A DNA stretch of 64,000 nucleotides, taken from positions 1-64,000 of the IMG/VR virus record IMGVR_UViG_3300037466_003849; one strand, 5' to 3'. Positions 2,919-49,312 of this stretch are shown piece after piece. The position numbers were made by a program, and so were the translations under genes. This DNA is from a virus (lineage: Duplodnaviria > Caudoviricetes). The notes beneath the pieces are model-generated. The model was not told where the DNA came from and searched no databases. It saw only the letters and a program-made list of their open reading frames with translations. How positions within the stretch are numbered: the stretch's first letter is position 1; each line of letters begins with the position of its first letter.

Positions 2919-3140
2919 CTACGGCACGAGCCAGAGGTGCTCGTAGGTCAGCCGGGGTAAGTCGAGGGAGCGCAGGGGCTCCACCGTCACGTGGTCAGGG
3001 TGGTGATGCTCCGACCAGATCCGCGCGAACCGCTTCGCCGCTGTCTCACAAGCCCGGTATGACAGGTCCATACCGGTTTGAGTGAAATGCACGACGACCT
3101 TCACATCCTTCTCGCCCGGCCGCGGAGACACCGCGGTCAC
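2919..3140 (-). CDS. Small hypothetical protein (73 aa)
   Basis: GTGA-coupled to upstream gene; SYRAC..AA..F...LPRL motif. Confidence 0.6.
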   Translation of the reverse strand: MTAVSPRPGEKDVKVVVHFTQTGMDLSYRACETAAKRFARIWSEHHHPDHVTVEPLRSLDLPRLTYEHLWLVP

Positions 3141-4160: not shown

Positions 4161-5045
4161 GTGACCAAAGTGGCAAAGGATGCGTCGCCGTCTCCGCTTC
4201 CGAGACGTCAGCTGGGCCGATATCTTCGCAAAGGGCGCGAGGATATCGGCCTCACCTTGAAGCAGGTCTCGACCGAGATGGAGTGGAGCTTGAGCAAGCT
4301 GGCCCGCATCGAGCGCGGTGAGATGGGCAAGCTGACGACTCGCGACATCGAGGCCCTGTGCAAGATCTTGGAGTTCGACGACGAGCGCACCAAGGCGATG
4401 ATCGGACTCAATCAGCAGTCGGCAACCAAGAGTTGGTGGCACGCCTACGGGGATGTAATCCCAGAAGGCTTCAACGTGTACGTCGGTCTGGAAACGTCCG
4501 CCGTCGCGATGGACATCTTCCGGCCGGACATCATTCCTGGCCTGTGTCAGACCGCCGATTACGCCCGCGCGCTCGACAGGATCTTCTTTCCCAACGACTC
4601 GGAGGAGGAGCAAAGGGGACGCATCGAATTGCGGATGAGCCGCCAGGCAATCCTGACCCGAAGAACCAGTCCACCAAAGGTGGACGTGGTGCTGCATGAA
4701 TCGGTTCTACACACTCAAGTGGGAGATTCCGAGGTGATGGCCGGACAACTCCGGCACCTCGCCGACATGAGCACCCGAGACAATGTGAGCGTCCGCATAC
4801 TGCCGTCGAGCGCGGGATTCCCGCTCGGCATCCCAGTCGGCCCGTATGTGATTCTGGATTTTCCGGACGATAACGAGCCGACGGTCGTTTACATCGAGAA
4901 CTTCACGGGCGACGCCTACCTTGAGGGAGAATCGGATGTCGCACGGTACCGTGAAGCATCTGCAATCATCCAGCACGCTGCGCTGGATGCAGTTTCCAGT
5001 AGGAGCCTGCTTCGGCGGGTAGCAAGACAACGAAGGGACGATTGA
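4161..5045 (+). CDS. XRE-family HTH regulator with DUF5753 domain (Scr1/WhiJ-like)
   Basis: RRQLGRYLR..RE HTH, WW..Y, GLE, IPGLCQTADYARA, LHESVL, M..QL.HL, VVYIE motifs. Confidence 0.92.
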   Translation: MTKVAKDASPSPLPRRQLGRYLRKGREDIGLTLKQVSTEMEWSLSKLARIERGEMGKLTTRDIEALCKILEFDDERTKAMIGLNQQSATKSWWHAYGDVIPEGFNVYVGLETSAVAMDIFRPDIIPGLCQTADYARALDRIFFPNDSEEEQRGRIELRMSRQAILTRRTSPPKVDVVLHESVLHTQVGDSEVMAGQLRHLADMSTRDNVSVRILPSSAGFPLGIPVGPYVILDFPDDNEPTVVYIENFTGDAYLEGESDVARYREASAIIQHAALDAVSSRSLLRRVARQRRDD

Positions 5046-5260
5046 CCGTGAGCATTGACCTGTCCGGGGCCAAGTGGTTCAAGAGCAGCCGCAGCTCTGG
5101 GGGGAAGGAATGCGTGGAGGCGGCACACCTGGATGGCGGCCACGTCGGCGTTCGCGACTCCAAGAACCCGACCGGCCCGGCGCTCATCTTCACCCCCGGC
5201 GAATGGGACGCCTTCATCGGCGGAGTGATGGACGGAGAGTTCAACCGGCCGCAGGCGTAG
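5042..5260 (+). CDS. DUF397 protein (Scr2-like)
   Basis: WFKSSRS...CVE...VGVRDSKNP.GP.L.F...EW.AF signature; coupled to the XRE gene. Confidence 0.95.
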   Translation: MTVSIDLSGAKWFKSSRSSGGKECVEAAHLDGGHVGVRDSKNPTGPALIFTPGEWDAFIGGVMDGEFNRPQA

Positions 5261-5278
5261 CCCGCGGCGAAAGGACAT

Positions 5279-5310
5279 GCCCCCAGCCCGTTGGGTTGGG
5301 GGCTTCTTTC
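5279..5310 (+). terminator. Intrinsic terminator
   Basis: GCCCCCAGCCC-gtt-GGGTTGGGGGC followed by TTCTTTC. Confidence 0.7.
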
Positions 5311-5360
5311 TGTCTCGGCCCGGATGGCCGATAGCTAAAGGGTTGCTGACTAGGTCGCCC

Positions 5361-5628
5361 GCGAACGTGTTGTGAACGTTTTCGTGAACGCTTTCGGTCC
5401 GAACCCCCCCGATGCCAACCGATCGCAACCGATGAGAGCATCGGTGCGTCGGCGGCATAGGGCCTGCTCAGGAGATAGATTCTGATAGGTCTGGATCGGC
5501 TTGTAAGACATCCCCGGAAACCGATGGCACAATCGTGGAGTTCTATGGGATGCAGGCCCGAAATAGGCCCTCCACCTGCGCCGGTCGGTTCCGGCCCGAG
5601 CGGCGTGAACGTTTACTCGAACGTTTTC
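5361..5628. other. Putative attP with integrase arm-type sites
   Basis: GTGAACGTTTTC-like repeats at 5361, 5372, 5384 and 5605, 5617 bracket about 210 bp of non-coding DNA just downstream of int. Core not identified. Confidence 0.6.
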
Positions 5629-5641
5629 GCCGTGTGGTCGC

Positions 5642-35722: not shown

Positions 35723-36060
35723 CACTTCTCCTCCGGCCAGTTGGCGACGATCACGGAACGCAGTGCGCCCCAGGAGTACCGGCTGTCCAGACCCTGGCCG
35801 CCCGGCGCCGACACGAATGTCTGCTTGAACTTCTTCTTGCCTGGCGTCTTGTCGGCCCGGAGGTTGTTGCCCCACAGCAGCGCGGTGCGAATCTTCCACG
35901 TCCCACCGTCGATTCGGACGTACTCCAGGTAGGCGTAGTCCGGCAGCCACTCGGCGCCCTTGTTGTCGGTGTGAAGGTCGTCGCTCGTTACGTCCGCCCG
36001 GATCGCCCGGACATCGGTGACGGTCGTGGTGTCCTTGACGGAGCTGATCTCGAATTCCAT
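35722..36060 (-). CDS. Hypothetical protein, similar to second half of 33599-34150
   Basis: RBS GAAGGG; W.P...LEY.R..GG.W...WG..LRAD. Confidence 0.65.
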   Translation of the reverse strand: MEFEISSVKDTTTVTDVRAIRADVTSDDLHTDNKGAEWLPDYAYLEYVRIDGGTWKIRTALLWGNNLRADKTPGKKKFKQTFVSAPGGQGLDSRYSWGALRSVIVANWPEEK

Positions 36061-36062
36061 GG

Positions 36063-36242
36063 TCAGTTCCCCTTCGTAGATGCCCGGCGCGCTGCCGCGG
36101 CGTGACGGCGCCAGTTGCCCATGCACCGGTTGCTCCATTCGAGCTGCGAGGCCCATCCGCACGAGCAGACGGCCTGAAACTTGCGACCCTCGGCGGTCTC
36201 GACAACCGCGAGGTTGGAGGAGTGAGTCGTGGTCTCGCTCAT
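36063..36242 (-). CDS. Small Zn-finger-like protein (59 aa)
   Basis: AVCSCGW...H; TGATG start. Confidence 0.6.
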   Translation of the reverse strand: MSETTTHSSNLAVVETAEGRKFQAVCSCGWASQLEWSNRCMGNWRRHAAAARRASTKGN

Positions 36243-37045
36243 CACTTCTCCTCGGTCGCCGCGAGCTCGCGATCGGCATCCCACTCGGCCTGTCGGCGCG
36301 TCTTCCAGATCTCCAGCGCCCGCGCCTGCGCCGCCTGCTTGGTCGGATGCTTGACGGCGTACTCGTCGTCGGTCACGCCGATGCCCTGGGACACCGTGAG
36401 CCCCCAGTACTGCTCGCTGCTGCCGGACTGCCTGCGCGAGATGGAGTAGGTCTCCTTGCGGCCGATGTAGTCGGCGCAGTGGGCGACGTAGTTGCCGTCG
36501 GACTTCTTGTAGAACCTCGGCGGCACCCATGCGTCGGCGACCTTGCTGATGTACAGGATCGAGCCGCTGGGGCTCGCCTCGACGGTGTAGCCCGCCTCCT
36601 TCAGCACCTTGGCGATCCGGGCGGCCTTCTTGGTGTTGACCTCCTCGATGTCGTCGGTGTCGACGCTCACCGAGATGCGGGTGGGGCCGGACTGGCTCAC
36701 CCGCAGGCCGGGCCGGGCGCGGTCGTGGGAGGTCTTGTACCCCAGCCGCCGCATGGCCAGCGCCATCGTGTTCACCGCCAGCAGGCCGGGGCGCATCCAC
36801 GGCTCGTGCTCGTCGGCCTTGCGCGGCCGTCCGGTCTGACGGTCGATCTTGGCGTAGGCCAGGATGTCGGCGCGCACGTAGATGTCGGTGCCCGAGGGGG
36901 AGGCGAGCTTCGGCGGGAAGTCTTCGGCCTTCTTCAGCACGTTCACCCGCTGACGCGAGCAGCCGAGGATCTCGGCGATATCGGCGACCCCGACGAGGTC
37001 GGCCGCGGGGGTGCCAGCGAGGGTGCTGGCGATCCACTCCGTCAT
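36242..37045 (-). CDS. HTH (AlpA/MerR-like) multidomain protein
   Basis: LVGVADIAEILGCSRQRV..L...DFPP..GRPR; RBS GAAAGGA. Confidence 0.75.
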   Translation of the reverse strand: MTEWIASTLAGTPAADLVGVADIAEILGCSRQRVNVLKKAEDFPPKLASPSGTDIYVRADILAYAKIDRQTGRPRKADEHEPWMRPGLLAVNTMALAMRRLGYKTSHDRARPGLRVSQSGPTRISVSVDTDDIEEVNTKKAARIAKVLKEAGYTVEASPSGSILYISKVADAWVPPRFYKKSDGNYVAHCADYIGRKETYSISRRQSGSSEQYWGLTVSQGIGVTDDEYAVKHPTKQAAQARALEIWKTRRQAEWDADRELAATEEK

Positions 37046-37083
37046 GGATTGTCCTTTCGATGAACGGGGTAGAGTGTGGACCC

Positions 37084-37114
37084 GAGCCGGGGTGCATAGG
37101 TCGCATCCCGGCTC
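37084..37114. promoter_or_regulatory. Hairpin with ATAGGTC loop
   Basis: GAGCCGGGGTGC-ATAGGTC-GCATCCCGGCTC, followed by TTTCT on the + strand. Confidence 0.6.
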
Positions 37115-37164
37115 TTTCTGTGTCCGCGCTCCCTCCGTACGAACGACTATACGGGAAAGAGTTG

Positions 37165-37578
37165 TCAGTCGTCAACCCTTTTTGGAGCAGGCTCGTTGAG
37201 GATCTGGGCGACGCGCTGACGACTCAGGCCGACGAGCGCGGCAATGTCGTGAGCCTTGAGATTGTCCCGGCCGAGATCGTGGACGAACGCCTTCGTCGTG
37301 CTCTCGATTTCCTTCTCGAATTCCCGCAGGCGCCCACGTGCCCGCAGCAATGCGCGTGAGCGAGATTCGATGCGCTTGGTGTGCCTGAAATCGCCCATGG
37401 TCATGACGACTTCGAATTCCGAGGGCCGCAGATCCTTCTCCAGCATGATGAAGCTCTGCGCCGCCTCGACGACGCCCTCCAGCTTGGTGGCGTGAGTCTT
37501 CACACCCTCTCCGACCTCGGGTAACTCGATAGTCCACGATGTCCCGTCGTACCCGGACACGACAGCTGTAAATCGCAT
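37165..37578 (-). CDS. HicB-like antitoxin (RNase H-like fold plus C-terminal HTH), no adjacent toxin
   Basis: F.A......W.IE.PEV...THA.KL..V.E.A..FI; DIAALVGLSRQRVAQIL. Confidence 0.7.
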   Translation of the reverse strand: MRFTAVVSGYDGTSWTIELPEVGEGVKTHATKLEGVVEAAQSFIMLEKDLRPSEFEVVMTMGDFRHTKRIESRSRALLRARGRLREFEKEIESTTKAFVHDLGRDNLKAHDIAALVGLSRQRVAQILNEPAPKRVDD

Positions 37579-37603
37579 AGCGATCCTCCTTTCGACACGC
37601 TCA

Positions 37604-37663
37604 TGCTATCCGGTAGCACGCTGATCCGCTAGTCGGTAGCAGCAGTGATGCTATCCAGTAGCA
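37604..37663. promoter_or_regulatory. Three phased palindromic operators
   Basis: (T/C)GCTA-N5-TAGCA at 37604, 37627, 37649. Confidence 0.7.
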
Positions 37664-37718
37664 CCACATGATCGAGCCGGGGCGTATATCGCCAGATCAG
37701 CGCCTGTCCAGCCAGGCG

Positions 37719-37738
37719 TTATACGGTGTATAAATAGT
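37719..37738 (+). promoter_or_regulatory. Candidate promoter/operator before a probably leaderless gene
   Basis: TTATAC-GGT-GTATAA palindrome overlapping TATAAA, just upstream of ATG 37741. Confidence 0.45.
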
Positions 37739-37740
37739 CC

Positions 37741-38598
37741 ATGTCTGATCGTGTCTGTGGAATGAAGCGCTGCTCCCGGTCGTCACCGAATTACATCTGC
37801 AACCTGTGCAACCGATACCTCCACAAGGACCTGCGAGCCGTCGCCTGGCTGGGCCGCGAGCTCCAGGTCACCCTCACCCGTACCGATCAGCTCGGCGATC
37901 CCTACGCCGACGGCGGCCACGCCACCGAGAAGCCGCTGATCTTCAACGACGCCGCCAGCGAGGCCGCGTGGGCGCTGCGCAATGATCTCCAGTACTGGAC
38001 CGGCGAACTGGCCGAGTTCATGGGCGTGACCTTCGTGCCGCTGGGCTCGACCCACCTGGCCAGCTTTGTCGGCCCGATCCGGCCGGGGGAGAGCCACGCC
38101 CCGCAGGACTACCGGCCCACCGCGCCGGACCTCGCGGCCTGGCTGGCCTACCACACCGCCACGATTCCGAAGATGGCCGCCGCCGCCGAGTGCGCCGACG
38201 CCATCGCCAACTCCGTCGCCCTCGTCGGCCGGACCATCGACAAGCGCGACGTGCCAGTGTTCTGCGGCCCGTGCCCGCACTGCGAGAAGGGCGGACTGTT
38301 CGGCCGCCGCGACGCCGACCGCCTGCACTGCCGCAGCTGTGGCGCGAAGGTCGACCGTGACGCCAACGAGGTGAGCGTGCACACCGAGCTGCGTCGCCGA
38401 TTCTTCCCGGCGGGGGAGATGGCCATCGTCGTCACGAACATCACCGGCAAGGAGATGTCCTCCAAGCAAATTCACAACTACGCCGCCGCCCGGCGCGACC
38501 GAATCCGCAGTGTCGTCGATACTCTCGGCCGCCGTCTGTATTCGGCCGCGGATGTTCTTGCCGCCATGGGGTATTCGAGCACCGTGGCGGCGGCGTAA
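37741..38598 (+). CDS. Zn-binding protein with C-terminal HTH (candidate late regulator)
   Basis: C..C N-terminus, CGPCPHC..C.SCG, C-terminal RLYSAADVL; position before the late region. Confidence 0.7.
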   Translation: MSDRVCGMKRCSRSSPNYICNLCNRYLHKDLRAVAWLGRELQVTLTRTDQLGDPYADGGHATEKPLIFNDAASEAAWALRNDLQYWTGELAEFMGVTFVPLGSTHLASFVGPIRPGESHAPQDYRPTAPDLAAWLAYHTATIPKMAAAAECADAIANSVALVGRTIDKRDVPVFCGPCPHCEKGGLFGRRDADRLHCRSCGAKVDRDANEVSVHTELRRRFFPAGEMAIVVTNITGKEMSSKQIHNYAAARRDRIRSVVDTLGRRLYSAADVLAAMGYSSTVAAA

Positions 38599-38692
38599 CA
38601 ACTACCCTGTAGTTCTGCGATCAGGTAGCGGGCCGGTTACCGCAATGCCTCCGCCGGAGACGGCAATTGAACAATCGAAAGGACTGCCCGAC

Positions 38693-39403
38693 ATGGGTAA
38701 AACGATTCCCGACGCCTACTCGCCAGCGACCAAGGAAACCGCGCTCCAACTTCTTCGCGAAGCGGTCGATTCGGGCAAAACCCTCAACGCGGCGGCGAAC
38801 GAAGTGGCGGACGCATTCTCCGATGGCCCGGCCGCCCCGACATTGATGGGCTGGGCGCGCAAGGCTGGGATCAGTTCCACTGCGACGCAGGGAAGGAATT
38901 ACAGCGACGAGCAGCGCCGCAAGGCCGTGGCCGAGATGCTGGAGCTGATCAAGCAGGGCAAGACGCCGCACATCGCCGCGACGACGGTCTCGAAGATGCC
39001 GGGGATGCCGAAGGTGACCGCCCTGCGCCGATGGCTCGACGCGTCCGCCGACGAGCTTGCCGCCGCGGCGAAGGAGAACGAGAAGCGCCGAGCCGAGGAG
39101 CTCGCCGCCTTCGAGGCTGAGCTGCGCGAGACCACCGCGCAGATCAAGGAGAAGCCGGTCGCACTGGAGCGCATCGAGCCTGTTCCCGCTACCGCCGCCG
39201 ACGCTCTGGTCACGCAGATCAACGAGCTGAAGGCAGAGAAGGCCGACCTCACCGATCGCCTCCAGGACGTCCAGGACGACTACGACAAGCTGATGGGCAA
39301 GTTCATCGAGCTCCAGGCCCGCCTGAGCGACGAGTCGCACCTGCGCGAGGAGGTGTCGAGGCTGCGCATCCTGGTGAACTTCTACACCTCCGAGGCGATC
39401 TGA
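38693..39403 (+). CDS. Tandem transposase-type HTH plus coiled-coil protein (IS3 OrfA-like)
   Basis: YSPATKETAL...TLMGWARKA and YSDEQRRKAV...ALRRW repeats; leucine-zipper-like end; RBS GAAAGGA. Confidence 0.65.
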   Translation: MGKTIPDAYSPATKETALQLLREAVDSGKTLNAAANEVADAFSDGPAAPTLMGWARKAGISSTATQGRNYSDEQRRKAVAEMLELIKQGKTPHIAATTVSKMPGMPKVTALRRWLDASADELAAAAKENEKRRAEELAAFEAELRETTAQIKEKPVALERIEPVPATAADALVTQINELKAEKADLTDRLQDVQDDYDKLMGKFIELQARLSDESHLREEVSRLRILVNFYTSEAI

Positions 39404-39520
39404 CCGTCCGCGACACGCCGAATATCCTGCATGTGGTTGAAACGCGCAGACACGACGTGTTTAGGCTAATTCGCCTGACGTGTACTGGATAAGTCACAAA
39501 GTCAGGCCCACAACTGAATC

Positions 39521-39732
39521 GAAACGCCCCATTGCGTGCTCCGTCGCGGTGGGGCGTTTCCCATGGATAGCGGGCCGCCATCCTCGTTACCGCAGAAAAC
39601 GAAGAATGCCGCGCCCGTAGCACCGCGCCGGATGGAGTTACGTCCTTTCGCCATCCGGTTGCGTGTGCCGCTGTGTCGCCCCCTCCAGCGCAAACATGAG
39701 GGGGCTCAACTTCCGGCCGGAATCATCGGCCG
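39521..39732. ncRNA. Multi-hairpin intergenic segment (candidate structured RNA or leader)
   Basis: Four consecutive stems at 39521-60, 39628-58, 39678-705, 39714-32. Confidence 0.3.
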
Positions 39733-39753
39733 AACCCTGAGAAGGAATCACAG

Positions 39754-39819
39754 ATGAACGCCTGGATCGCCTATGGCCTGATCCAGTGGCTTCTGCATTT
39801 CGCGAGGCCACTGGGATGA
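39754..39819 (+). CDS. 21-aa peptide (MNAWIAYGLIQWLLHFARPLG)
   Basis: RBS GAGAAGGA; ATGA overlap with next gene. Confidence 0.45.
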   Translation: MNAWIAYGLIQWLLHFARPLG

Positions 39820-40031
39820 ACGCGATGAAAGGACAGACGCCCGAGCAATCGCGGCCGTGTGCGGCATTTCTGCGGAAGACCATCAAGCCCGCGCACCCGC
39901 AGTACAACGCCGTCTCTCAGGAGTGGTACGTCGACTGCGTCAGCGCGCACGGCCACTCCGGGATGCACAGCAGCGCCCGCGGTGACCGCTGGCTGACCAC
40001 CGAGGGAGTAGTGATCGACCGTCGTGGCTGA
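39816..40031 (+). CDS. Small Cys/His protein
   Basis: C....DC....GH.G.H motif. Confidence 0.55.
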   Translation: MNAMKGQTPEQSRPCAAFLRKTIKPAHPQYNAVSQEWYVDCVSAHGHSGMHSSARGDRWLTTEGVVIDRRG

Positions 40032-40233
40032 GAAGACGAAAGACCCCGCCATCGCCGCCCTGGCCAACACCTTGTCGAACATCCCGCACCCCGGCGGCCA
40101 GGAGCTGCGCCTGGTGATGTTCGACGGCGCCTCCGACTCGGTGAAGACCCAGGTCGCCGAGGGCATCGTCCACTTCCTGCGGAAGAACGGCCACATGCCC
40201 TACCCGCGGTCGACCAAGCGCCGGACGAAGTGA
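40024..40233 (+). CDS. Small hypothetical protein
   Basis: RBS GAGGGAG. Confidence 0.6.
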   Translation: MAEKTKDPAIAALANTLSNIPHPGGQELRLVMFDGASDSVKTQVAEGIVHFLRKNGHMPYPRSTKRRTK

Positions 40234-40427
40234 TGGGTAAGGCGAAGAAGGCCAAGCAGGCCACCACCGCCGCCGAGGCGCCGCGCGTCATCGGCAACCC
40301 CACCGCTGCCCAGCGCGCCAGCGTGATCCAGGTGATCACCGGCCTGCTGGAGCGCGTCAACCTCGGCTCCGCGCTCACTCGCGGCGAGGACGGCAGCATC
40401 ACGATCCGCATACCGAAAGGTCCGTAA
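40230..40427 (+). CDS. Small hypothetical protein
   Basis: Coupled overlap. Confidence 0.6.
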   Translation: MMGKAKKAKQATTAAEAPRVIGNPTAAQRASVIQVITGLLERVNLGSALTRGEDGSITIRIPKGP

Positions 40428-40549
40428 TGGACACCGAAGACACCGACGACCGGCCGGTGACCATCGCCGATCGTCTCGGCCCCGAGGTGGTGGCGTCGCT
40501 GATGGCGAAGGCCACGGCGAGCGCCGACGCCGCCGACGCGCAGCGATAG
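40427..40549 (+). CDS. 40-aa acidic peptide
   Basis: TAATG overlap. Confidence 0.45.
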   Translation: MDTEDTDDRPVTIADRLGPEVVASLMAKATASADAADAQR

Positions 40550-40556
40550 GAGCACG

Positions 40557-40868
40557 ATGCCACGTCCGCCCCGCCGTCCCGAACATCCCGATCTCGATCT
40601 GCTGTCCCAGGCGGTGGCCGAGACCGACATCGCCAGCGCCCAGGGCGCCAGCCACGACGAGATCTTCAGCCGCGTCATCGCGCCGGAAGTCCTCGATTAC
40701 GCCGCCGTCTCCCGCGCCAACCTCGCCCGCCACCAGCTGAAGCTGTCCGCCTCCTCGGAGACCGGGATGGCCGCGACCTGGCAGGACGGATTCATGGCAG
40801 GCGCCCGATATCAGCAGCTGAAGGAATCGGCGGCCGGGGAAGAAATCCCCGCGGCCACGAATTCCTGA
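40557..40868 (+). CDS. Hypothetical protein
   Basis: RBS AGGAG; HPDL..LSQAV...W.DGFMAG motif. Confidence 0.65.
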   Translation: MPRPPRRPEHPDLDLLSQAVAETDIASAQGASHDEIFSRVIAPEVLDYAAVSRANLARHQLKLSASSETGMAATWQDGFMAGARYQQLKESAAGEEIPAATNS

Positions 40869-40925
40869 AATCCGACGAATTCCCGAAATCCCGGAACTCC
40901 TGCCCGCCAGGAATTCCGGGATTTC
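40859..40925. repeat. Tandem GAATTCC(T/C)GAAATCC repeats plus 18-bp inverted repeat
   Basis: Units at 40859 and 40877; stem 40885-902 / 40908-925 with one mismatch. Confidence 0.6.
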
Positions 40926-40990
40926 TTCGCGTCTGGGGATCTCCTCCGGCCGCACCGGCCCGACTGCGATCCGGCCGACGAAAGGACACC

Positions 40991-41326
40991 ATGGAGATCA
41001 ACACCGACGACGGCAGCAAGGGGCTCTGGCTGATGACCGGCCCTTCCGGCGACGACACCCCGGCCAAGATCGGCCTGCTGTTCGATTGGTGCCGCTATGA
41101 CAGTGACGCGCACGGCTGGGCCATCAGTGGCGGCACACCGCGCGGCGTCTTCGCCGTCGGCTGGATGCCGTGCCTCAGCGCGAGCTGCCCGCTACGTGGA
41201 ATGCCGAAGCCGCTGCACCATGCGATCGTCCTCGTCGGCAACCTCGTCGACAGCCTCCACGCCTGCGCCGACACCCTCGCCCTCGTGGCCCGCCGAGCCC
41301 GCGGCTTCTCGCGACTCTCGCGCTGA
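40991..41326 (+). CDS. Hypothetical protein
   Basis: RBS GAAAGGA; TGATG overlap with HNH gene. Confidence 0.6.
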   Translation: MEINTDDGSKGLWLMTGPSGDDTPAKIGLLFDWCRYDSDAHGWAISGGTPRGVFAVGWMPCLSASCPLRGMPKPLHHAIVLVGNLVDSLHACADTLALVARRARGFSRLSR

Positions 41327-41697
41327 TGGCCACGCGGGTACGCCGTCCGTGCACGCAGTGCGGCCAGCCGGTCGTCTCCGGCGGCAAGTGCGCCCGGCAC
41401 CTCGCGCTACACCACAAGCGCGTCGACCAGATCCGCGGTAACTCCTCGCAGCGCGGCTACGACAACGAGCACCGCACGCGCTTCCGTGCCGAGGTGCTGC
41501 GGCGGGACAACTACACCTGCCAGATCTGCTCCGGCTACGCCGACCGCGCCGACCATCACCCGCTCTCACGCAAGGAGCTGGTCGAGGCCAGGCTCGATCC
41601 CAACGATCCCGTCCACGGCCGGGCGCTGTGCGAGTACTGCCATAACCGGCACACCGCCAAGACGCAAGGCAAGGACAACTGGCGCAAGTCGCGATGA
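41326..41697 (+). CDS. HNH endonuclease (packaging-associated type)
   Basis: RGYD...R..VL.RD..TCQIC..ADH..P...GRALCEYCHNRHT. Confidence 0.92.
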   Translation: MATRVRRPCTQCGQPVVSGGKCARHLALHHKRVDQIRGNSSQRGYDNEHRTRFRAEVLRRDNYTCQICSGYADRADHHPLSRKELVEARLDPNDPVHGRALCEYCHNRHTAKTQGKDNWRKSR

Positions 41698-41844
41698 GAG
41701 CTCATCGGCGAGGGCCTCGGAGGGGAGGGGCTTCGCCGCGCCCGCGCGGCCGTTTCGGATCGGTTTCGCCGGGCGGTGGGAAAAAAATTTTTGGAGCACA
41801 ATCCTCGCTGGTCGGCAGGAGAAACCGTCGCTGGGAAACCCGCA

Positions 41845-41893
41845 GTACCCCCCGTGGGTATCTGAGACCCGGCTGGATACCCACCGGGGGTAC
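41845..41893. repeat. 18-bp inverted repeat near the presumed genome end
   Basis: GTACCCCCCGTGGGTATC-N13-GATACCCACCGGGGGTAC (one mismatch). Confidence 0.65.
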
Positions 41894-42029
41894 CAAGTGT
41901 TGACGATGTCAAGATCACGATTAAATATCTCCGCGTGTCGTAGCATTCGGGCGTGTCGTGCGTCCCGCATCGCCTCGGCTCGTTGGCGCTGTTCACGGCG
42001 CGTTTCCGTGCCCGAACGCACCGCAAGCC

Positions 42030-42330
42030 ATGTCGGCGCCGTCGGCGCGCCCGTCGGCGCCTTGTCGGCCGGATCGCTGGCGCGCCGTACAGGTCGGCTG
42101 TAGCGGTTGCTGTCGGCGCCGTCGGCCGGATCGCTGGCAGGCTGGCGCCGATCACGTCGGCCGGTCGCAAAGGGTCGGCCGGATCGCTGGCGCCGTCGCT
42201 GGCAGGCTCGAGCCGATGAGTCGGCCGGACATGCCGTGCGCCGTCGGCGCCAAGTCGGCGCCGTGCGGGACGCTCACCCAATCGGCCCGGTCGGCGCCGT
42301 TGCTGGCGCCCGGTCGGCCGGTCGAGTCTT
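42030..42330. repeat. Strand-polarised GTCGGC(GCC/CGG) simple-repeat tract
   Basis: More than 10 units; GTCGGCCGGATCGCTGGC at 42064, 42121, 42174. Confidence 0.75.
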
Positions 42331-42463
42331 AGGCACCGAGTGTGGCGCCCGTACGTGGTTGCGCGGTCCTAGATTCCGCGCTGTGAGGCTCGATATCCGA
42401 GCATGGTGCTTGCGATCGGTTCTCCTTCTGTCACGTGACGTAATGCTGTGTCGGCAAGATCGC

Positions 42464-42512
42464 CAGAAACACAACAAGCCCTACCGACATAGGCGCCGAT
42501 AGGGCTTGTTGT
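42464..42512 (-). terminator. Terminator of the leftward gene array
   Basis: ACAACAAGCCCTA...TAGGGCTTGTTGT 13-bp stem. Confidence 0.7.
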
Positions 42513-42528
42513 CTCGCTGTGCGCACCC

Positions 42529-42567
42529 ACGGCGCCGCGTGCGGATAGGTCCCGCGCGCGGCGCCGT
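42529..42567. repeat. Degenerate copy of array hairpin (16-bp stem, ATAGGTC loop)
   Basis: ACGGCGCCGCGTGCGG-ATAGGTC-CCGCGCGCGGCGCCGT. Confidence 0.75.
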
Positions 42568-42580
42568 CGGCGGCTCGGCA

Positions 42581-42832
42581 TCAGTACGTGTTGTCGTGCG
42601 TGAGGCCGCCGAGCCATTCGGGCACCCGCTTGCCCTGCCACATGATCAGCAATCGGCTCGGTATGCCAACCGTGCGGCTGTCGACGTATCGAACAATGCG
42701 CTTGTTGGTGCTGGCCTTGCGTCGGCGCAATTCCTTGCAAGCGTCAATGAAGGAAAGCGTTTGCGTTCCGCTGCTCCATTGTTCGGTCACGGGTGAGTAT
42801 TCCTGCGCGTAGAAAACGTCAATTTCTCGCAT
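42581..42832 (-). CDS. Array gene (83 aa), unknown function
   Basis: RBS GAGAGAGG; MREIDVFYAQEYS... Confidence 0.7.
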   Translation of the reverse strand: MREIDVFYAQEYSPVTEQWSSGTQTLSFIDACKELRRRKASTNKRIVRYVDSRTVGIPSRLLIMWQGKRVPEWLGGLTHDNTY

Positions 42833-42851
42833 GTAATTACCTCTCTCGGTT

Positions 42852-42915
42852 CGGCCCAGTTGCCGTGACACACCGCGCGGATAGGTCCCGCACGGTGTCT
42901 CGGAGACGACTAGGA
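42852..42915. repeat. 64-bp intergenic repeat, copy 1
   Basis: CGGCCCAGTTGCCGTGACACACCGCGCGGATAGGTCCCGCACGGTGTCTCGGAGACGACTAGGA. Confidence 0.95.
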
Positions 42916-43509
42916 CGGGTCCTGCAAACTCAGATTGCCGCGGTATGCAGCCTGCGACTCGCCCGCGCGGTAATCCGGGTTGTCATTGCCAGCGACGATG
43001 AATCCGATCATTCCGTTAGGCAGGAAGTTGTGCACTGTCCCGCGGACGTCTCCGCTCGCTGCGGAGTGCCAGACAACCCGATCACCTTGCTTGAACTCCG
43101 GGTAGCAACGCTCGCAATCGTCGTCGCTGCACTTCGGCGGTCGGTTGGCTGTCGGCGCGGCCCAGTAGCTCACGCTGTCGCCGTTGTTCCAGTTAACGCG
43201 ATACGAATACTCTTCGCCCGCGAGGACGGCGCGCCGGACTCCATAGAGCATGTCTCGGAATCCGTCCGACCCCTCGCGCTGCATCAACTCGACCATGCCG
43301 GTATCCCCGGCGCCGTCCTTGAGGTCAGCCTCAGATTCCGCGGACGCGTCGCACGCTTCGGCCGACGCCTCGCCATCGCGGACGATCAACTCAGCAAGCG
43401 CGCGCGCTACCTCGATAGCGTCGGCCTCACTGTCGACATGCAGCGCGGTCGGCGCCATGTCCTCGGGCAGGCATCCGGGCGTATTCGACGAGACAACCCA
43501 AACGGTCAT
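42910..43509 (-). CDS. Array gene (199 aa), acidic, with C..DC.RC and SH3-like C-terminus
   Basis: RBS GAAGGGA; its TAG stop lies inside repeat copy 1. Confidence 0.7.
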   Translation of the reverse strand: MTVWVVSSNTPGCLPEDMAPTALHVDSEADAIEVARALAELIVRDGEASAEACDASAESEADLKDGAGDTGMVELMQREGSDGFRDMLYGVRRAVLAGEEYSYRVNWNNGDSVSYWAAPTANRPPKCSDDDCERCYPEFKQGDRVVWHSAASGDVRGTVHNFLPNGMIGFIVAGNDNPDYRAGESQAAYRGNLSLQDPS

Positions 43510-43529
43510 GATTCGATCCCTTCTCAATC

Positions 43530-43593
43530 CGGCCTAGTTGCCGTGACACACCGCGCGGATAGGTCCCGCACGGTGTCTCGGAGACGACTAGGA
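43530..43593. repeat. 64-bp intergenic repeat, copy 2
   Basis: Same as copy 1 except one C>T. Confidence 0.95.
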
Positions 43594-43818
43594 CAGTGCG
43601 CCGTAGGACCAACTACCCAACGGCGCCGATTCGCACGGCAGCGGCGCCACTGGCGCCCCGTACGCGTCGGTTGTGTCGTCGGCCGGATAGCCGTACTCGC
43701 ACGGGTCGACATTGAACGGAACGTTGTACTCCGGTACGTCGGCCGACGCGGACGGCGCCGACAAGGCCAGCGCAGCGGCTGCGATAGCGAGGATGGTTCG
43801 AATTGCGTTGCGGGACAT
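43588..43818 (-). CDS. Array gene: secreted peptide (76 aa)
   Basis: Signal peptide ending ASA-D; two Cys; TAG stop inside repeat copy 2. Confidence 0.7.
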   Translation of the reverse strand: MSRNAIRTILAIAAAALALSAPSASADVPEYNVPFNVDPCEYGYPADDTTDAYGAPVAPLPCESAPLGSWSYGALS

Positions 43819-43845
43819 AGTGATTACTCCTGTCGGTAGGTTCGG

Positions 43846-44115
43846 TTAGACCGCGAGATAGAAGCGGGTGCGCCGGTAGACATTCCGGTACTCGTCGGCG
43901 CGCCCGTAGTCGATGATCAGCTCGGAGAAGTGGTCGCCGAACATGGCCGTTCGCGCCGCGCGCGGGTGCTCGACGGCGAACTGTTCGATGGCGCTTTTCA
44001 GTGCCTCATTTGCCACGCTGGGCAAGTCGTGCGAGCTCAACTCGCGCCGCTGCATTTCCGACGCGTCGGCACTCACTGTGAAGTCCTGGTCTATGCGGAC
44101 AACCTTGAAAGGCAT
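43846..44115 (-). CDS. Array gene (89 aa), unknown function
   Basis: Clean ORF in the operon. Confidence 0.65.
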   Translation of the reverse strand: MPFKVVRIDQDFTVSADASEMQRRELSSHDLPSVANEALKSAIEQFAVEHPRAARTAMFGDHFSELIIDYGRADEYRNVYRRTRFYLAV

Positions 44116-44145
44116 TGCGATCCTTCGCGTTTCGAGAATGGACGG

Positions 44146-44496
44146 TTAGACGCTGGCAGGCTCGACAATCGAGGCCCACCACGTGAACGCGTGCCGCGTA
44201 CCGGCATCACGGTCTCCGCAGTGCTCGCACTGCGACCGCGAGAACGTACGCGTTTCGCAATCGCAGTCGGCGCCGTCGGCGCACGGTTCGCCCATGTGGG
44301 CGCATTCGTCGTCGGTGAGGTGGCCGTGTCCAAGCGTCACGGCGTCGGCGCCAGCGTTGCGCATGTTGTTTTCGATGTGCGCCAGCCAATCGGCCACCTC
44401 ATCGGCCGACCAATCGGCCGGGACGTTGCCGTATTCGATGCGGAATAGGCACGGTTCGCAGCACCATCCACTACCGAGAGAGATTTGCGCGTTCAT
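44146..44496 (-). CDS. Array gene (116 aa), Cys-rich
   Basis: RBS GAAGGGA; WCCEPC, C..DCDC..FS...CEHCG...G.RH. Confidence 0.7.
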   Translation of the reverse strand: MNAQISLGSGWCCEPCLFRIEYGNVPADWSADEVADWLAHIENNMRNAGADAVTLGHGHLTDDECAHMGEPCADGADCDCETRTFSRSQCEHCGDRDAGTRHAFTWWASIVEPASV

Positions 44497-44514
44497 ATTC
44501 GATCCCTTCTGTGT

Positions 44515-44578
44515 CGGCCCAGTTGCCGTGACACACCGCGCGGATAGGTCCCGCACGGTGTCTCGGAGACGACTAGGA
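44515..44578. repeat. 64-bp intergenic repeat, copy 3
   Basis: Identical to copy 1. Confidence 0.95.
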
Positions 44579-44579
44579 C

Positions 44580-45179
44580 TCAGCGGGGAGCGAGTCGCAT
44601 GGTTCCGCCGTGCATGTGCACAAGCGGAACATGCGGCATGGTCATGCCCTCATACGGTGTGTGCAGGATGAGGGATACGTTTCCGTCCTCATCGGTGTGA
44701 GGCTCGAGCGTCATAGTGAAGCAACCGCGCGGCTCACCGACGCTGATCTGTACTTCGATCCGGTTTTCGCCGATCGTCACGCCTGCCCAGTTGACATAGT
44801 CGGCGGCGGACTTGTCGCGCGGCTCCGCCAGCGTGTAGTTGGTTTTCTCGCGAATGTCATCCTCCGACACCCACGCGTCGTCTTCTAGCTCAAGGTCGCG
44901 CCGGATGTCGTCAAAGTCGATTCCGTTGCACAACCGCGCGTCGTTTTCGTCGTGCGTCCAGCCATCAACAGTGTCGGAAATAGGCTGGCCGCAATGCTTG
45001 CAAACCTTCTCGTCGTCGCTGTTCGCGGTAACGGTCACGTCGATTGTGTCATCGTCGCCGAAGTGCTCGGAGTCGATTGCCTGGCCGTTAATTTCGATGC
45101 TGAACACAGCAGTACTCCCGTGGGAATTGGCGAATTTCTCGGCGCGCCAGATAGGCGCGTTGCGTGACCTAATGGCCAT
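44580..45179 (-). CDS. Array gene (199 aa), very acidic, with CKHC motif
   Basis: Stop immediately before repeat copy 3. Confidence 0.7.
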   Translation of the reverse strand: MAIRSRNAPIWRAEKFANSHGSTAVFSIEINGQAIDSEHFGDDDTIDVTVTANSDDEKVCKHCGQPISDTVDGWTHDENDARLCNGIDFDDIRRDLELEDDAWVSEDDIREKTNYTLAEPRDKSAADYVNWAGVTIGENRIEVQISVGEPRGCFTMTLEPHTDEDGNVSLILHTPYEGMTMPHVPLVHMHGGTMRLAPR

Positions 45180-45227
45180 GACATACCGCGCGCAATGTCG
45201 CGGTATCTCGGGAGCCGTTAGGGCAGG

Positions 45228-45956
45228 CTACGCGGACGCGTATTCGAAACGGATACGGAACGGCGCGCCGTCGAATTCGCGCGGCTGTCGGTCCTCGAAA
45301 GCGGAGACAAGATCAAGGTAAGCCTCGGCGTAGCGTTCGCCGAAAGTGTGTTCCCGCGCGGCATGTGCTTTGTTGAGTGCTGCCGCATTGTCCTCATCCC
45401 TCGCATTGAGCCACGCGCGGCGGTCGGTCGCAGTGCGCTTAGGCGCCGCTTTCACGATAGCGGGCATTACCTCCGAAGCCTCATCGGAAACCGCGTCGTA
45501 GTTGTCGCGGGCAGGCGCCTTGCCGCGCGCTACTTCCTTGGTCTGGCCGCTGGCAGTGACTTTCTCGATCACGTAGGTAGCGGTAAGGCCATCCAGGGCG
45601 CCAGCGAGCAAGTGGGGGTACTCGGCCGAGTCGTCGAATGAGTCTGCCCAATCGGCAATCCGGGCGGTCACGTCTGCATCGTTCGCGAGAGTGGCGCGCC
45701 GGTAAAGGCTGCGCATTCCGGCTGTGAAGTCCGACCATGTCATCGCGCCATCGCAGTAGCGCCGATCGAGTGCATCCAGTTCGTTGCGGAGCTCAGACTT
45801 GCCTGCCCACTGCTGGCCGCAGTATGTGCAGTCGAGCGGCTGGCCCGCGAAAACGGGCTCAGCTGCCGCGTAGAAGTCGACACAGTTGTTGCAGCGCTGA
45901 TCAATCGAGCCGTCATCTGCAATGCGCTGCACACCGATCATCTTGCGGTCCGTCAT
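45228..45956 (-). CDS. First array gene (242 aa), Zn-ribbon N-terminus
   Basis: RBS GGAGG; CNNC and CTYC motifs. Confidence 0.7.
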   Translation of the reverse strand: MTDRKMIGVQRIADDGSIDQRCNNCVDFYAAAEPVFAGQPLDCTYCGQQWAGKSELRNELDALDRRYCDGAMTWSDFTAGMRSLYRRATLANDADVTARIADWADSFDDSAEYPHLLAGALDGLTATYVIEKVTASGQTKEVARGKAPARDNYDAVSDEASEVMPAIVKAAPKRTATDRRAWLNARDEDNAAALNKAHAAREHTFGERYAEAYLDLVSAFEDRQPREFDGAPFRIRFEYASA

Positions 45957-46320
45957 GTCGTCGCCTCCCGTTCCGTCGCTTCGCACCGTGCGCCGCGATC
46001 GAGGCCAACAGTGCCCGTGACCAGGTGGAATGCGCAATCGGCCGGTAATTGCGTCCGGTGGTTTTGACGGCGTACGAAAACGGACCCGCCGGTTGGTTAC
46101 TCGATACCCCCTCGGAGTCAGCTACCCCCCGGCAACATCTCCACAGCGAGCGGCCGGCGACCGTTCTCCCCACAGTCCTCTCAAAAATGCTCGATTTTCG
46201 AAAGCCTTTTTGCGCCGGTCAGGGGCATGATTTTCGCACTCTCGCTATGGACGTGACCTGGGACGATGCCAGGTCGGCGACGGGGCGGCCGGAAGGGCCA
46301 GTCGAAAGGATTCTCCAGCA

Positions 46321-46686
46321 ATGATAGAGCCACCATTCGCGCTTTCGGAAGGCGCAGACGAACATTGGCGGCGGCACGTGGATCGCATCGTATCCGAGGG
46401 CCGCGCCAAGCTCATCAATACCGACGCGCTGGCGATCTACTGCGACATGCTGGCCCAGTATCAGCAGGCTACGCACCTGATCCACATGGAGGGCATGACC
46501 CGCGACGGCGACCGCGGCGGCATGACCAAGCACCCGGCCACGACCATCCTTACCTCGCTGCGCGCCGACCTGCGGCACTATGCCCGCATGATCCCGCTCT
46601 ACGACTCCGATGCCGAAATCGGCGACAGCCTCGACGGTTTCATCGCCGACGCCGAGAAGTGGGCCAACGAGCCCACGGCAGGCTGA
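46321..46686 (+). CDS. terS: Terminase small subunit (P27-like)
   Basis: D..AL..YC...AQY..A...I..EG.......KHPA motif; RBS GAAAGGA. Confidence 0.8.
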   Translation: MIEPPFALSEGADEHWRRHVDRIVSEGRAKLINTDALAIYCDMLAQYQQATHLIHMEGMTRDGDRGGMTKHPATTILTSLRADLRHYARMIPLYDSDAEIGDSLDGFIADAEKWANEPTAG

Positions 46687-47610: not shown

Positions 47611-47647
47611 TTTCGACCTCAACACACCGGGGGCAACCCCGCTCCCG

Positions 47648-49312
47648 GTGTGTGGGTTCGTCAATATCTTGTCTGGTCTCCGCTGTTTGGAGACCGGCGA
47701 TCATCTCTGCGAAGCCCGCGCCACGCTGGGCCGGGATTTCTTCGAATGCGTGCTCGTGCACACCAAGGGCGCCTACGCCGGGGCGCCCTTTCTGCTCTAC
47801 AACTGGCAATACGACGACATCGTCCGGCCGCTGCTCGGCAAGACGGTGTGGTCGGACGAATACGGTTGCTACAAGCGGCAATTCGAAATCGCGTGGATCG
47901 AGGTCGCCCGGAAAAACGGGAAGTCCGAGATCCTCGCGGGCCTCATGCTCTACCTCCTCGTGATGGACGACGAGGAGTCTGCCGAGATCTACGGCTGCGC
48001 GAAGAACCGTGAACAGGCCAGCCTCGTCTTCGACGTGGCGAAGCGGATGGTCGAGCTGTCTCCCGTCCTGCGCCAGCGCCTGCGCATCAAGGCCACCGAG
48101 AAGCGCCTGATCTTCGCGCGCACCAACAGCTTCTACCGGGTGCTCGCCGCCGACGCTGGCGGCGCCCTGGGCTCCAACCCGCACGGCGTCGGCGCCGACG
48201 AGATCCTCGCCTGGCCGAACTCCGGCATGTGGGACTCGATGCGTACCGGCATGGGCTCCGGCGCCCGCCGCCAGCCGCTGATGGTCGCCGCCACCACCGC
48301 GGGATCGGACACCGAAGGCTTCGCCGGGCAGATGCACAAGGAGATGGAGCGCATCGCGGAAGATCCCGACCGCGCGCCGCACATCTTCGTCTACCTGCGC
48401 AACGTGCCCATGGACGCCGATCCGTGGGACGAGGAGAACTGGCACCTCGCCAATCCGGCTCTCGGGCAATTCCTTTCGATCGAGGGCCTGCGCAAGCAGG
48501 CAATCGAGGCGATGCAGAACCCCATCGCCGAGGTTGCGTTCCGGCAGTACCGGCTCAACCAGTGGCAGAACGCAACGTCGCGCTGGATGCCGATGCACCT
48601 GTTCGACGCCTGCGCTGGCGAGGAATTCGAGACGTTCGACGAGGCGCGCGAGCGCTTCCGCGGCATGGACTGCTGGTTCGGCCTCGACCTCGCCGCCCGC
48701 CAGGACCTCACCTCGATGTGCTACGCGTTTCCCGACGCCGACGGCGGCGTGGATCTGCTCTGGCGCTTCTGGCTGCCCGAGGCGGCCTACGCCCGGCTCA
48801 ACGCCGCCAACGACGGCCGCCTGGTCGACTGGCAGCGCAAGGGCTGGCTGACGGTCACCGAGGGCGATGTCCTGGACTTCGAGGTCTTCTACAAGCACGT
48901 CCAGGAGGACAGCGAGCACTTCCACATCCTCGGCGGCGACGCGGACAAATTCGCCTCCGATCCGGTGCTCCAGCGCGTGCAGCAGACCGTCTACTGCGAC
49001 GACATCATGGCCTACAGCAACACCTTCCAATACATGAGCCCTGGGATGCACCACATCTCAGACCTGGTGAAGCTCAAGGCATTCCGCTGGCACGGCAACC
49101 CCGTCGCGCGGTTCTGTTTCGACTCGACCGAGGTAGTCGTCGACACCGCCGATCCCGACCGCATCCGGCCGCACAAGCCCAACCGCGGCCTGGCCGCGAA
49201 ACGCATCGACGGCGTCCCGGCCGCGATCCTCGCCGTCAACGCGTGGAAGACCCGCGGCGACTCCATCCTGAGCGTCTACGCCAGTGGCGATTACGACGTT
49301 TATAGCCTCTGA
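47648..49312 (+). CDS. terL: Terminase large subunit (start approximate)
   Basis: Walker A ARKNGKS, GADE, GLDLA, RIDG motifs. Confidence 0.95.
   Translation: MCGFVNILSGLRCLETGDHLCEARATLGRDFFECVLVHTKGAYAGAPFLLYNWQYDDIVRPLLGKTVWSDEYGCYKRQFEIAWIEVARKNGKSEILAGLMLYLLVMDDEESAEIYGCAKNREQASLVFDVAKRMVELSPVLRQRLRIKATEKRLIFARTNSFYRVLAADAGGALGSNPHGVGADEILAWPNSGMWDSMRTGMGSGARRQPLMVAATTAGSDTEGFAGQMHKEMERIAEDPDRAPHIFVYLRNVPMDADPWDEENWHLANPALGQFLSIEGLRKQAIEAMQNPIAEVAFRQYRLNQWQNATSRWMPMHLFDACAGEEFETFDEARERFRGMDCWFGLDLAARQDLTSMCYAFPDADGGVDLLWRFWLPEAAYARLNAANDGRLVDWQRKGWLTVTEGDVLDFEVFYKHVQEDSEHFHILGGDADKFASDPVLQRVQQTVYCDDIMAYSNTFQYMSPGMHHISDLVKLKAFRWHGNPVARFCFDSTEVVVDTADPDRIRPHKPNRGLAAKRIDGVPAAILAVNAWKTRGDSILSVYASGDYDVYSL

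Follow-up and report, generated by a model that had tools for sequence, protein, structure and literature searches.

The operator hairpin of phage PP7 has a bulged A four pairs below its loop, and the gp43 operators of T4 and RB69 keep their loop on stems that differ. Mispairs in the upper stem are likewise typical of antisense recognition hairpins such as CopA/CopT and RNA I/RNA II. To our knowledge, actinobacterial phages have no described equivalent of RNA-signal reading of the N/nut, coat-operator, or RegB type, and we know of no functional explanation for the U-less gene-end hairpins of actinobacteria. Here, we describe a family of six hairpins, H0 to H5, which represent four independent stems and display one nearly invariant 7-nucleotide (nt) loop. 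They were found in the first 64 kb (positions 1 to 64,000, hereafter the window) of the IMG/VR virus record IMGVR_UViG_3300037466_003849, whose full genome comprises 72,121 bp with 66% GC. The record was assembled from a rhizosphere metagenome, near-identical DNA is also present in a second, soil run, and the virus is an uncultured soil phage, which we call an actinophage.

The + strand of the window contains six copies of the word ATAGGTC and the - strand none, and the counts are the same in the whole genome. Five of these copies form 7-nt loops on stems of 11 to 16 bp. All five had been reported in an earlier note on this DNA, and all are present, with stems of 12 bp (H1), 16 bp (H2), and 11 bp (H3 to H5). 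A scan relaxed to allow one loop mismatch added a sixth hairpin, H0, with the + strand loop ACAGGTC. The observation is robust and slightly larger than first claimed.

H1 (37084-37114, - strand) displays the RNA-sense loop GACCUAU on a 12-bp stem whose fourth pair from the loop is G.T on the + strand. It lies 50 nt past the stop codon of a HicB-like/helix-turn-helix (HTH) gene and 38 nt ahead of the ATG (37045) of a gene encoding a 267-aa protein. The + strand reading of H1 gives a perfect 12-bp stem that includes a G.U pair; it is followed by TTTCTGTGT (also UUUCUGUGU), with a T-tract at 37115-37123. H2 (42529-42567, - strand) shows GACCUAU on a 16-bp stem with T.G at the fifth pair on the + strand, and it begins 13 nt past the stop codon (42581) of the last gene in a leftward array of orphan genes. 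H3 (42870-42898), H4 (43548-43576), and H5 (44533-44561), all on the - strand, have 11-bp stems in which the fifth pair is C.A on the + strand, that is, U.G on the - strand. The single non-Watson-Crick pair that had been described 4 to 5 bp from each loop, as G-T on the + strand in two hairpins (H1 and H2) and on the - strand in three (H3 to H5), is indeed there. H0 (3051-3079, - strand) has the RNA-sense loop GACCUGU on 8 perfect pairs, with no internal mismatch and a weak outer extension. It falls within a leftward 73-codon open reading frame (ORF) at 2919-3140, whose start overlaps the preceding stop (GTGA) and has a good Shine-Dalgarno sequence ahead of it. The A6-to-G change in H0, the sole loop variant in the family, is synonymous, at the third position of a Leu codon (CTA to CTG), and keeps the RR|CNU core discussed below.

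H3 to H5 are embedded in three copies of a 73-nt repeat, 93-100% identical, which provide the stop codons of three unrelated orphan genes. Copy 1 (42844-42916, - strand) consists of the TAG stop of the upstream gene, 11 nt, H3, and a small second hairpin, and its end is ~10 nt from the ATG (42834) of the gene that follows. Copy 2 (43522-43594, - strand) holds H4 between an upstream stop at 43588 and a downstream ATG at 43510, and copy 3 (44507-44579, - strand) holds H5 between a stop at 44580 and an ATG at 44497. Only 3 of the 7 array junctions have the repeat-borne element. A different intercistronic hairpin of the same array (45183-45206, at the 45228/45179 junction) has the loop ACAUUGCG in the RNA sense, and its 3' arm abuts the ATG of a 199-aa gene. 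The seven loop-proximal pairs of H2 are those of H3 to H5, apart from the non-Watson-Crick pair, in which the other arm carries the change; this qualifies the earlier description of its sequence as largely different. H2 is probably a diverged copy of the H3 to H5 element. Alignments of H0 and H1 gave no stem or flank similarity to H2 to H5, and H1 shares the loop alone, which bears out the description of its stem as unrelated to the others.

We compared the family with 60 first-order Markov shuffles of the genome, scoring hairpins with at most one loop mismatch and at least 8 Watson-Crick pairs. The shuffled genomes contained a mean of 0.03 such hairpins, and six (four independent stems) were observed. 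A covariance model built from the six members gave them 36-46 bits (H0, 35.9; H1, 38.9; H2, 41.7; H3, in repeat copy 1, 45.7), and the rest of the window scored at most 23 bits, these lower matches being mostly the reverse strands of the same six hairpins. Compensatory changes at 10 of 11 pairs are a consequence of selecting members by their stems; independent evidence comes from the shared loop instead. The RNA-sense folds were significantly more stable than those of shuffled sequences (z of -2.7 to -4.2), and the + strand fold of H1 had a z-score of -5.6. One further 16-bp hairpin, in a leftward block near the start of the record (4214-4252), has the loop AAAGGGC, with two differences from the family loop, and T.G at the fifth pair; it reached only 12 bits with the covariance model.

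All six hairpins have the same orientation relative to genes, and all lie in leftward blocks (P ~0.004 for four independent stems). By comparison, only 5 of 23 other strong hairpins are found in these blocks, which make up 25% of the genome, the rightward-read part being 75%. The hairpins had been linked to two leftward operons; the link to leftward genes stands, and the blocks concerned number three. Leftward mRNAs would therefore carry GACCURU (GACCUAU, or GACCUGU in H0), and because the reverse-complement loop is absent from the + strand, rightward transcripts carry none. The positions relative to codons are also regular, since H2 to H5 start 11-13 nt past a stop codon and H1, H3, H4, and H5 end 35-38 nt ahead of an ATG. 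In the predicted structures, RNAfold often pairs G1 with U7, leaving an ACCUA pentaloop (ACCUR generally). The internal non-Watson-Crick pair is always of the transition type. H2 and H3 to H5 show independent transitions on opposite arms of the same pair, and the mispair of H1 is at the neighboring fourth position, a pattern hinting that the family keeps a weakened pair 4-5 bp below the loop, though H0 lacks one. That the hairpins are structures recognized through their loops, as had been proposed, is a reasonable reading, which the sixth member, the statistical excess, and the strict leftward link support in part.

Based on these features, we tentatively propose, at somewhat less than even confidence, that the elements function at gene boundaries as RNA hairpins, each offering its loop to a sequence-specific factor that governs where transcripts end, how they are processed, or how stable they are. 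The leftward transcripts would carry six cis-acting hairpins displaying GACCURU, or possibly an ACCUR pentaloop closed by G.U. A single reader would bind or cut at the loop; it is most likely to be a phage or host (actinobacterial) protein or ribonuclease, and its action would fix transcript 3' ends, processing, and stability, and through them the relative expression of neighboring accessory genes. The stems would merely hold the loop out, and their sequences would be free to drift. In a concrete version, the loop would be cleaved by an RNase E-type enzyme: the preference of mycobacterial RNase E is RR|CNU (PMC10641625), and GA|CCU in the predicted unpaired loop fits it. We infer that RNA rather than DNA is active, that the reader acts in trans, and that the outcome is post-transcriptional; the argument for RNA is that the hairpins track the direction of transcription and sit at regular distances from stop and start codons. 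Of the possibilities raised in the earlier note, a processing or translation tag is the best fit to the positions, and no partner for it was identified.

None of the six hairpins has a U-tract in the RNA sense (- strand), and none qualifies there as an intrinsic terminator. Mycobacterial RNA polymerase requires a U-tract for intrinsic termination (PMC3993855), so a self-sufficient terminator role is unlikely for H2 to H5, and U-less hairpins at gene ends need another explanation. Only H1 has a U-tract, on the opposite (+) strand, and it is the sole family member called terminator-like. A separate terminator-like inverted repeat (42464-42519), U-rich on both sides, lies between H2 and the rightward operon at their convergent junction, and H2 is thus not the sole candidate terminator there. 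This repeat has a 13-bp stem built on ACAACAAGCCCTA and a 16-nt loop containing CATAGGCG, which matches the family loop at 5 of 7 positions.

Several points weigh against control by a loop-reading RNA factor. RR|CNU accounts for only four of the seven invariant positions, a random 7-nt loop would satisfy it in ~5% of cases, and the actinobacterial host is itself presumed. The orientation relative to genes is inseparable from DNA-strand identity, since all six hairpins lie on one DNA strand. Their settings are mixed (one intragenic, one after a promoter-like site, one at an operon end, and three intercistronic) and match no single classical device. In the RNA sense, a G.U wobble is present only in H3 to H5, and H1 and H2 have an A.C mismatch; the better fold is that of + strand RNA in H1 and H2 and that of - strand RNA in H3 to H5. 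The wobble evidence favors neither strand, and hence does not favor the mRNA strand, and single-stranded DNA folds are stable on both strands. Finally, no candidate RNA-binding protein or nuclease was seen among the neighboring genes, and no related genome carrying the element was found.

The search for a reader covered ~40 ORFs, which were compared with Pfam, PHROGs, NCBIfam, or PADLOC, and it revealed no RNA-binding protein, ribonuclease, antiterminator, or HUH/Y1 enzyme among them. The searches yielded HTH proteins, WhiB-like factors, SpoU, DnaN, a primase-polymerase, an HNH protein, and an integrase-like protein, and the array proteins were orphans. One of the latter, a 200-aa protein (42913-43512, - strand), had weak Spt5/NusG-like neighbors in the ESM Atlas (TM 0.33-0.41). 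An exhaustive HMMER search placed its N-terminal 140 residues in an uncharacterized family of 18 representative clusters with the motif VVSSN.PGYLP...CSD..C..C, and its AlphaFold model, with pLDDT >90 in the N-domain, had no PDB match at E <=0.001 in Foldseek. These three analyses ruled it out as a NusG/Spt5-like factor.

Rfam had no match at gathering thresholds across the whole window and, at an E-value cut-off of 1, only a spurious plant microRNA match within 36000-46500. INPHARED phages gave no DNA match to the region (megablast, blastn) or to a 73-nt query at E <=10, and searching the literature for the loop sequences returned no match. An exact 15-mer of loop plus upper stem had 21 matches in IMG/VR, all without stems, and these were dismissed as chance. 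Searches of IMG/VR, Joint Genome Institute (JGI) metagenomes, and GTDB based on TerL, the large terminase subunit, returned only an IMG provirus (G001, the same as L022; 83% TerL identity), a metagenome contig (L026; 82%), and Kribbella prophages (44-46%), none of which carries the hairpin; TerL identity to cluster E mycobacteriophages is 58%. Searches with the 267-aa, HicB-like, and phrog_908 proteins gave no relatives, and the element is absent from contigs encoding homologs of the 200-aa array protein. In the two soil and rhizosphere DNA runs, the sequence is near-identical and the hairpins are invariant.

The closest relatives have HNH, terS, and structural genes in common with this phage, and the gene content of their HNH-terS interval is unrelated. 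They also have no counterpart of the leftward block around H1 and of most of the block that contains H0. Since the relatives lack these blocks and lack the hairpin, the element is known only from lineage-specific accessory blocks with lower GC at third codon positions (GC3). In G001, two of the three ATAGGTC copies are found in the homologous HNH-terS interval in the same orientation, as GGYAGACCTATGYCCAAAA at the start codons of leftward ORFs (L022 5341-5360 and 7064-7083; G001 31301 and 29578), one of which is a 12-codon upstream ORF overlapping the next ATG. Their stems are 4-5 bp and register-shifted, the covariance model does not score them, and they were not counted as members.

The surroundings of H1 bear on two rival explanations, one for each strand. 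A sigma-70-like promoter match, TTGACG-18-TATAGT (37146-37175, - strand; 10 of 12 positions, a consensus match only), overlaps the end of the HicB-like/HTH gene, and if it were used, H1 would lie at about +25 to +55 of the 5' untranslated region (UTR) of the 267-aa gene. Such a placement, as of nutL after pL, would suit nut/boxB-like processive antitermination, suggested in the earlier note, in which a phage protein bound to the loop on nascent RNA would let polymerase read through terminators throughout the leftward operons. A G.U-closed pentaloop is one way of drawing the loop, antitermination tolerates free positioning (UTR, intercistronic, intragenic), and specialized NusG paralogs such as LoaP use a leader RNA hairpin (PMC12691694). 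However, alignments and inspection of the sequences gave no boxA-like motif common to the flanks of H0, H1, H2, and H3; H5, the array member nearest to the presumed promoter, is ~1.4 kb downstream of the start of the first gene; H2 stands after the last gene, just before the separate terminator-like repeat; and the array showed no internal U-tract terminators that polymerase would have to bypass. The ORFs searched yielded no N-, Q-, or NusG-like protein, the NusG-like hint having failed, and the negative for N applies to a small, fast-diverging type of protein and to the ~40 ORFs covered. Antitermination of this kind is unsupported and seems to us improbable. On the + strand, TAGAGT, a -10-like hexamer read from the sequence (37070-37075), lies 8 nt before the base of H1, and together with the T-tract it would define a hypothetical ~40-nt RNA consisting only of the hairpin and displaying AUAGGUC. 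In loop-loop (kissing) control, this RNA would pair with GACCURU loops on the leftward mRNAs of three operons and, in cis, with its own antisense. In its favor, H1 is the only terminator-like member, with its perfect stem followed by UUUCUGUGU and its low fold z-score; the GACCUGU of H0 would still pair with AUAGGUC via G.U; and upper-stem mispairs are a feature of known antisense recognition hairpins. Yet both promoter and terminator are post hoc consensus matches with no -35 element, neither loop has a YUNR U-turn motif, complementarity stops at the 7 loop bases, and H2 also folds better on the + strand but has no promoter or U-tract. We regard kissing control as unlikely, and we give slightly less credence to its extension into a regulon built on one loop, in which the RNA defined by TAGAGT, the 12-bp stem, and the U-tail would engage the GACCURU loops by 7-bp kissing contacts and coordinate accessory and lysogeny-side genes in the three leftward operons. 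In that scheme, the mispair 4-5 bp below the loop would speed pairing and avoid RNase III, as in CopA/CopT.

The common DNA strand of all six hairpins and their stable single-stranded folds would suit a DNA-level signal, in which hairpins on single-stranded + strand DNA, or cruciforms, would be read by a recombinase, nuclease, or replication protein, for example as recombination sites at cassette boundaries in the hypervariable HNH-terS interval. H3 to H5 sit in near-identical direct repeats that supply the stops of unrelated genes, the mispairs show no consistent RNA-strand preference, and the HNH-terS gene content is entirely different in the closest relative, much as T4-type phages shuffle the ORFs of hyperplastic regions by means of PeSL elements (PMC2839356, PMC4122927) or as integrons use attC. 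But H0 and H1 lie outside any cassette array, H0 within a gene; no HUH, Y1, or integron-type enzyme was found among the proteins tested, the only recombinase-like gene being a weak tyrosine-integrase match beside an ordinary attP-like region; and contigs from two metagenomes showed no deletion or rearrangement joints at the repeats. Absence from the rightward 75% of the genome is also hard to square with a replication or packaging signal, and we find a DNA-level role doubtful. A dedicated reader could also be dispensed with altogether, if these were ordinary gene-end or structural hairpins whose loop identity came from common descent or gene conversion. H2 to H5 are clearly related copies, the element is confined to one genome lineage, and the carrying blocks, being lineage-specific and lower in GC3, may share one foreign source. 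H0 and H1 speak against this, as they have no stem or flank similarity to H2 to H5, and descent would require that all stem positions changed while seven loop bases stayed fixed; the chance expectation is 0.03 per genome. The prospect that there is no reader appears slim.

Other candidates were set aside. A promoter -10 or -35 role for the loop was rejected, as there is no TANNNT register on either strand and no matching partner hexamer. The 73-nt repeat was considered as a Shine-Dalgarno-sequestering device for translational coupling, and folding showed the Shine-Dalgarno windows to be already 50-70% unpaired, unchanged when 15 nt past the stop were held open. Mimicry of a tRNA anticodon loop or T-loop for the phage SpoU methyltransferase is a remote idea only: U33 alone fits (on the + strand), position 37 is not a purine, and no tRNA genes were found.

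The gene map, derived from GC3-based gene calling and family searches, places the hairpins as follows. Leftward block A (- strand), which contains H0, extends from ~70.9 kb, over the start of the record, to 9 kb; in it are HTH regulators, a DUF397-like ORF, and the integrase-like gene with an attP-like region. An early and replication block (10.3-33 kb, + strand) with SpoU, WhiB-like proteins, DnaN, and the primase-polymerase is followed by leftward block C (33.1-37.6 kb, - strand), which contains H1, and by rightward block D (37.7-42.3 kb, + strand), which has the HNH endonuclease at its end. The leftward array of seven orphan genes (42.6-46.0 kb, - strand) precedes the late genes, which extend from terS at 46.3 kb (+ strand). 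The hairpin-carrying blocks are lineage-specific and have lower GC3.

Some further features of the map deserve mention. The attP-like region (5260-5640) is non-coding, lies beside the integrase-like gene, and has repeated arm motifs of the GTGAACGTTT type; the only ATAGGTC that is not a hairpin loop (5485) is inside it and has almost no stem. The DUF397-like ORF (5042-5260) is a hint of an actinomycete host. The divergent region (37604-37663) upstream of the HicB-like/HTH gene contains two copies of an operator-like inverted repeat, TGCTAC(C/T)GGATAGCA, which probably mark autoregulation. After the HNH gene, ~800 nt (41700-42500) are apparently non-coding and include three direct repeats of GTCGGCCGGATCGCTGGCGC with spacings of 57 and 53 nt (42064-42198); this stretch may be a cos or terminase-binding region. 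The long TerL reading frame has, at its 5' end, a strong hairpin with the core ACACCGG....CCGGTGT that is kept in both close relatives (window 47624-47651; L028 6464-6491; L026 4983-5010), and the true TerL start may be downstream of it.

The direct value of the family is limited, as it comes from a single uncultured genome with a presumed actinobacterial host. A fixed loop on unrelated stems is nonetheless a clean experimental handle: loop mutations would leave the structure intact, and the hairpin could serve as bait for its reader. If fixed-loop hairpins at gene ends recur in other phages, they may represent a general, uncatalogued layer of gene-boundary control.

The N4-type DNA hairpin promoter, also raised in the earlier note, has a 5-7-bp stem, a 3-nt loop, and a giant virion RNA polymerase. 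It is an unlikely model for 7-nt loops on 11-16-bp stems in a genome with no ORF of ~3500 codons, large enough for such a polymerase; the one very large ORF, in the late-gene block, has 1936 codons. T4-type PeSL and integron attC sites resemble the H3 to H5 repeats, which flank unrelated orphan genes of a hypervariable interval and extend over the stop codon of the gene upstream. However, a PeSL is a composite of an early promoter and a terminator, and no sigma-70-like promoter was found in the 73-nt repeat, by a scan that captures actinobacterial promoters poorly. attC sites have R and L core motifs and a dedicated integrase; the repeats contain no GTTRRRY-type core, the sole integrase-like gene is a weak tyrosine-integrase match 36 kb away, and neither PeSL nor attC accounts for H0 and H1. 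With ColE1 RNA I/RNA II and R1 CopA/CopT, the family shares 7-nt recognition loops, GC-rich stems, and destabilizing upper-stem mispairs. Unlike those systems, the phage loops have no YUNR motif, their complementarity is limited to the loop, and the antisense RNA is here only predicted from sequence.

T7 RNase III sites and the U-less "I-shaped" gene-end hairpins of actinomycetes are likewise strong hairpins just past stop codons in polycistronic mRNAs, with no U-tract, but in these processing and stabilizer classes the loop is not conserved, and T7 sites are read via the stem and an internal bubble, whereas here the loop is invariant. Coat-protein and translational operators (MS2, PP7; T4/RB69 gp43) also combine a conserved loop with an irregularity a few pairs below it on a free stem. 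They overlap the ribosome-binding site of one target gene, whereas the phage hairpins that precede genes end 35-38 nt ahead of the starts, and the family has six copies, one of them intragenic. A phage-encoded NGN+KOW protein, as in an RfaH/LoaP-like system, was not found, the 200-aa candidate having failed. Lambdoid nut boxB elements are, like this family, short hairpins of phage transcripts with a loop read (in their case) by a phage protein and one copy following a promoter, here a promoter-like site, and the loop of the present family can be drawn as a pentaloop too. They differ in having a ~5-bp stem, a GNRA-like GAAAA/GAAGA loop, a boxA partner, and about two copies per genome near promoters, against 11-16-bp stems, GACCURU (ACCUR if G1.U7 pairs), and six copies that include gene-end and intragenic ones. 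The family thus resembles boxB, coat-protein operators, and intercistronic stabilizer hairpins, and it fails defining features of each class that can be tested. Taken together, the comparison suggests that it belongs with the cis-acting phage RNA hairpins read through their loop.

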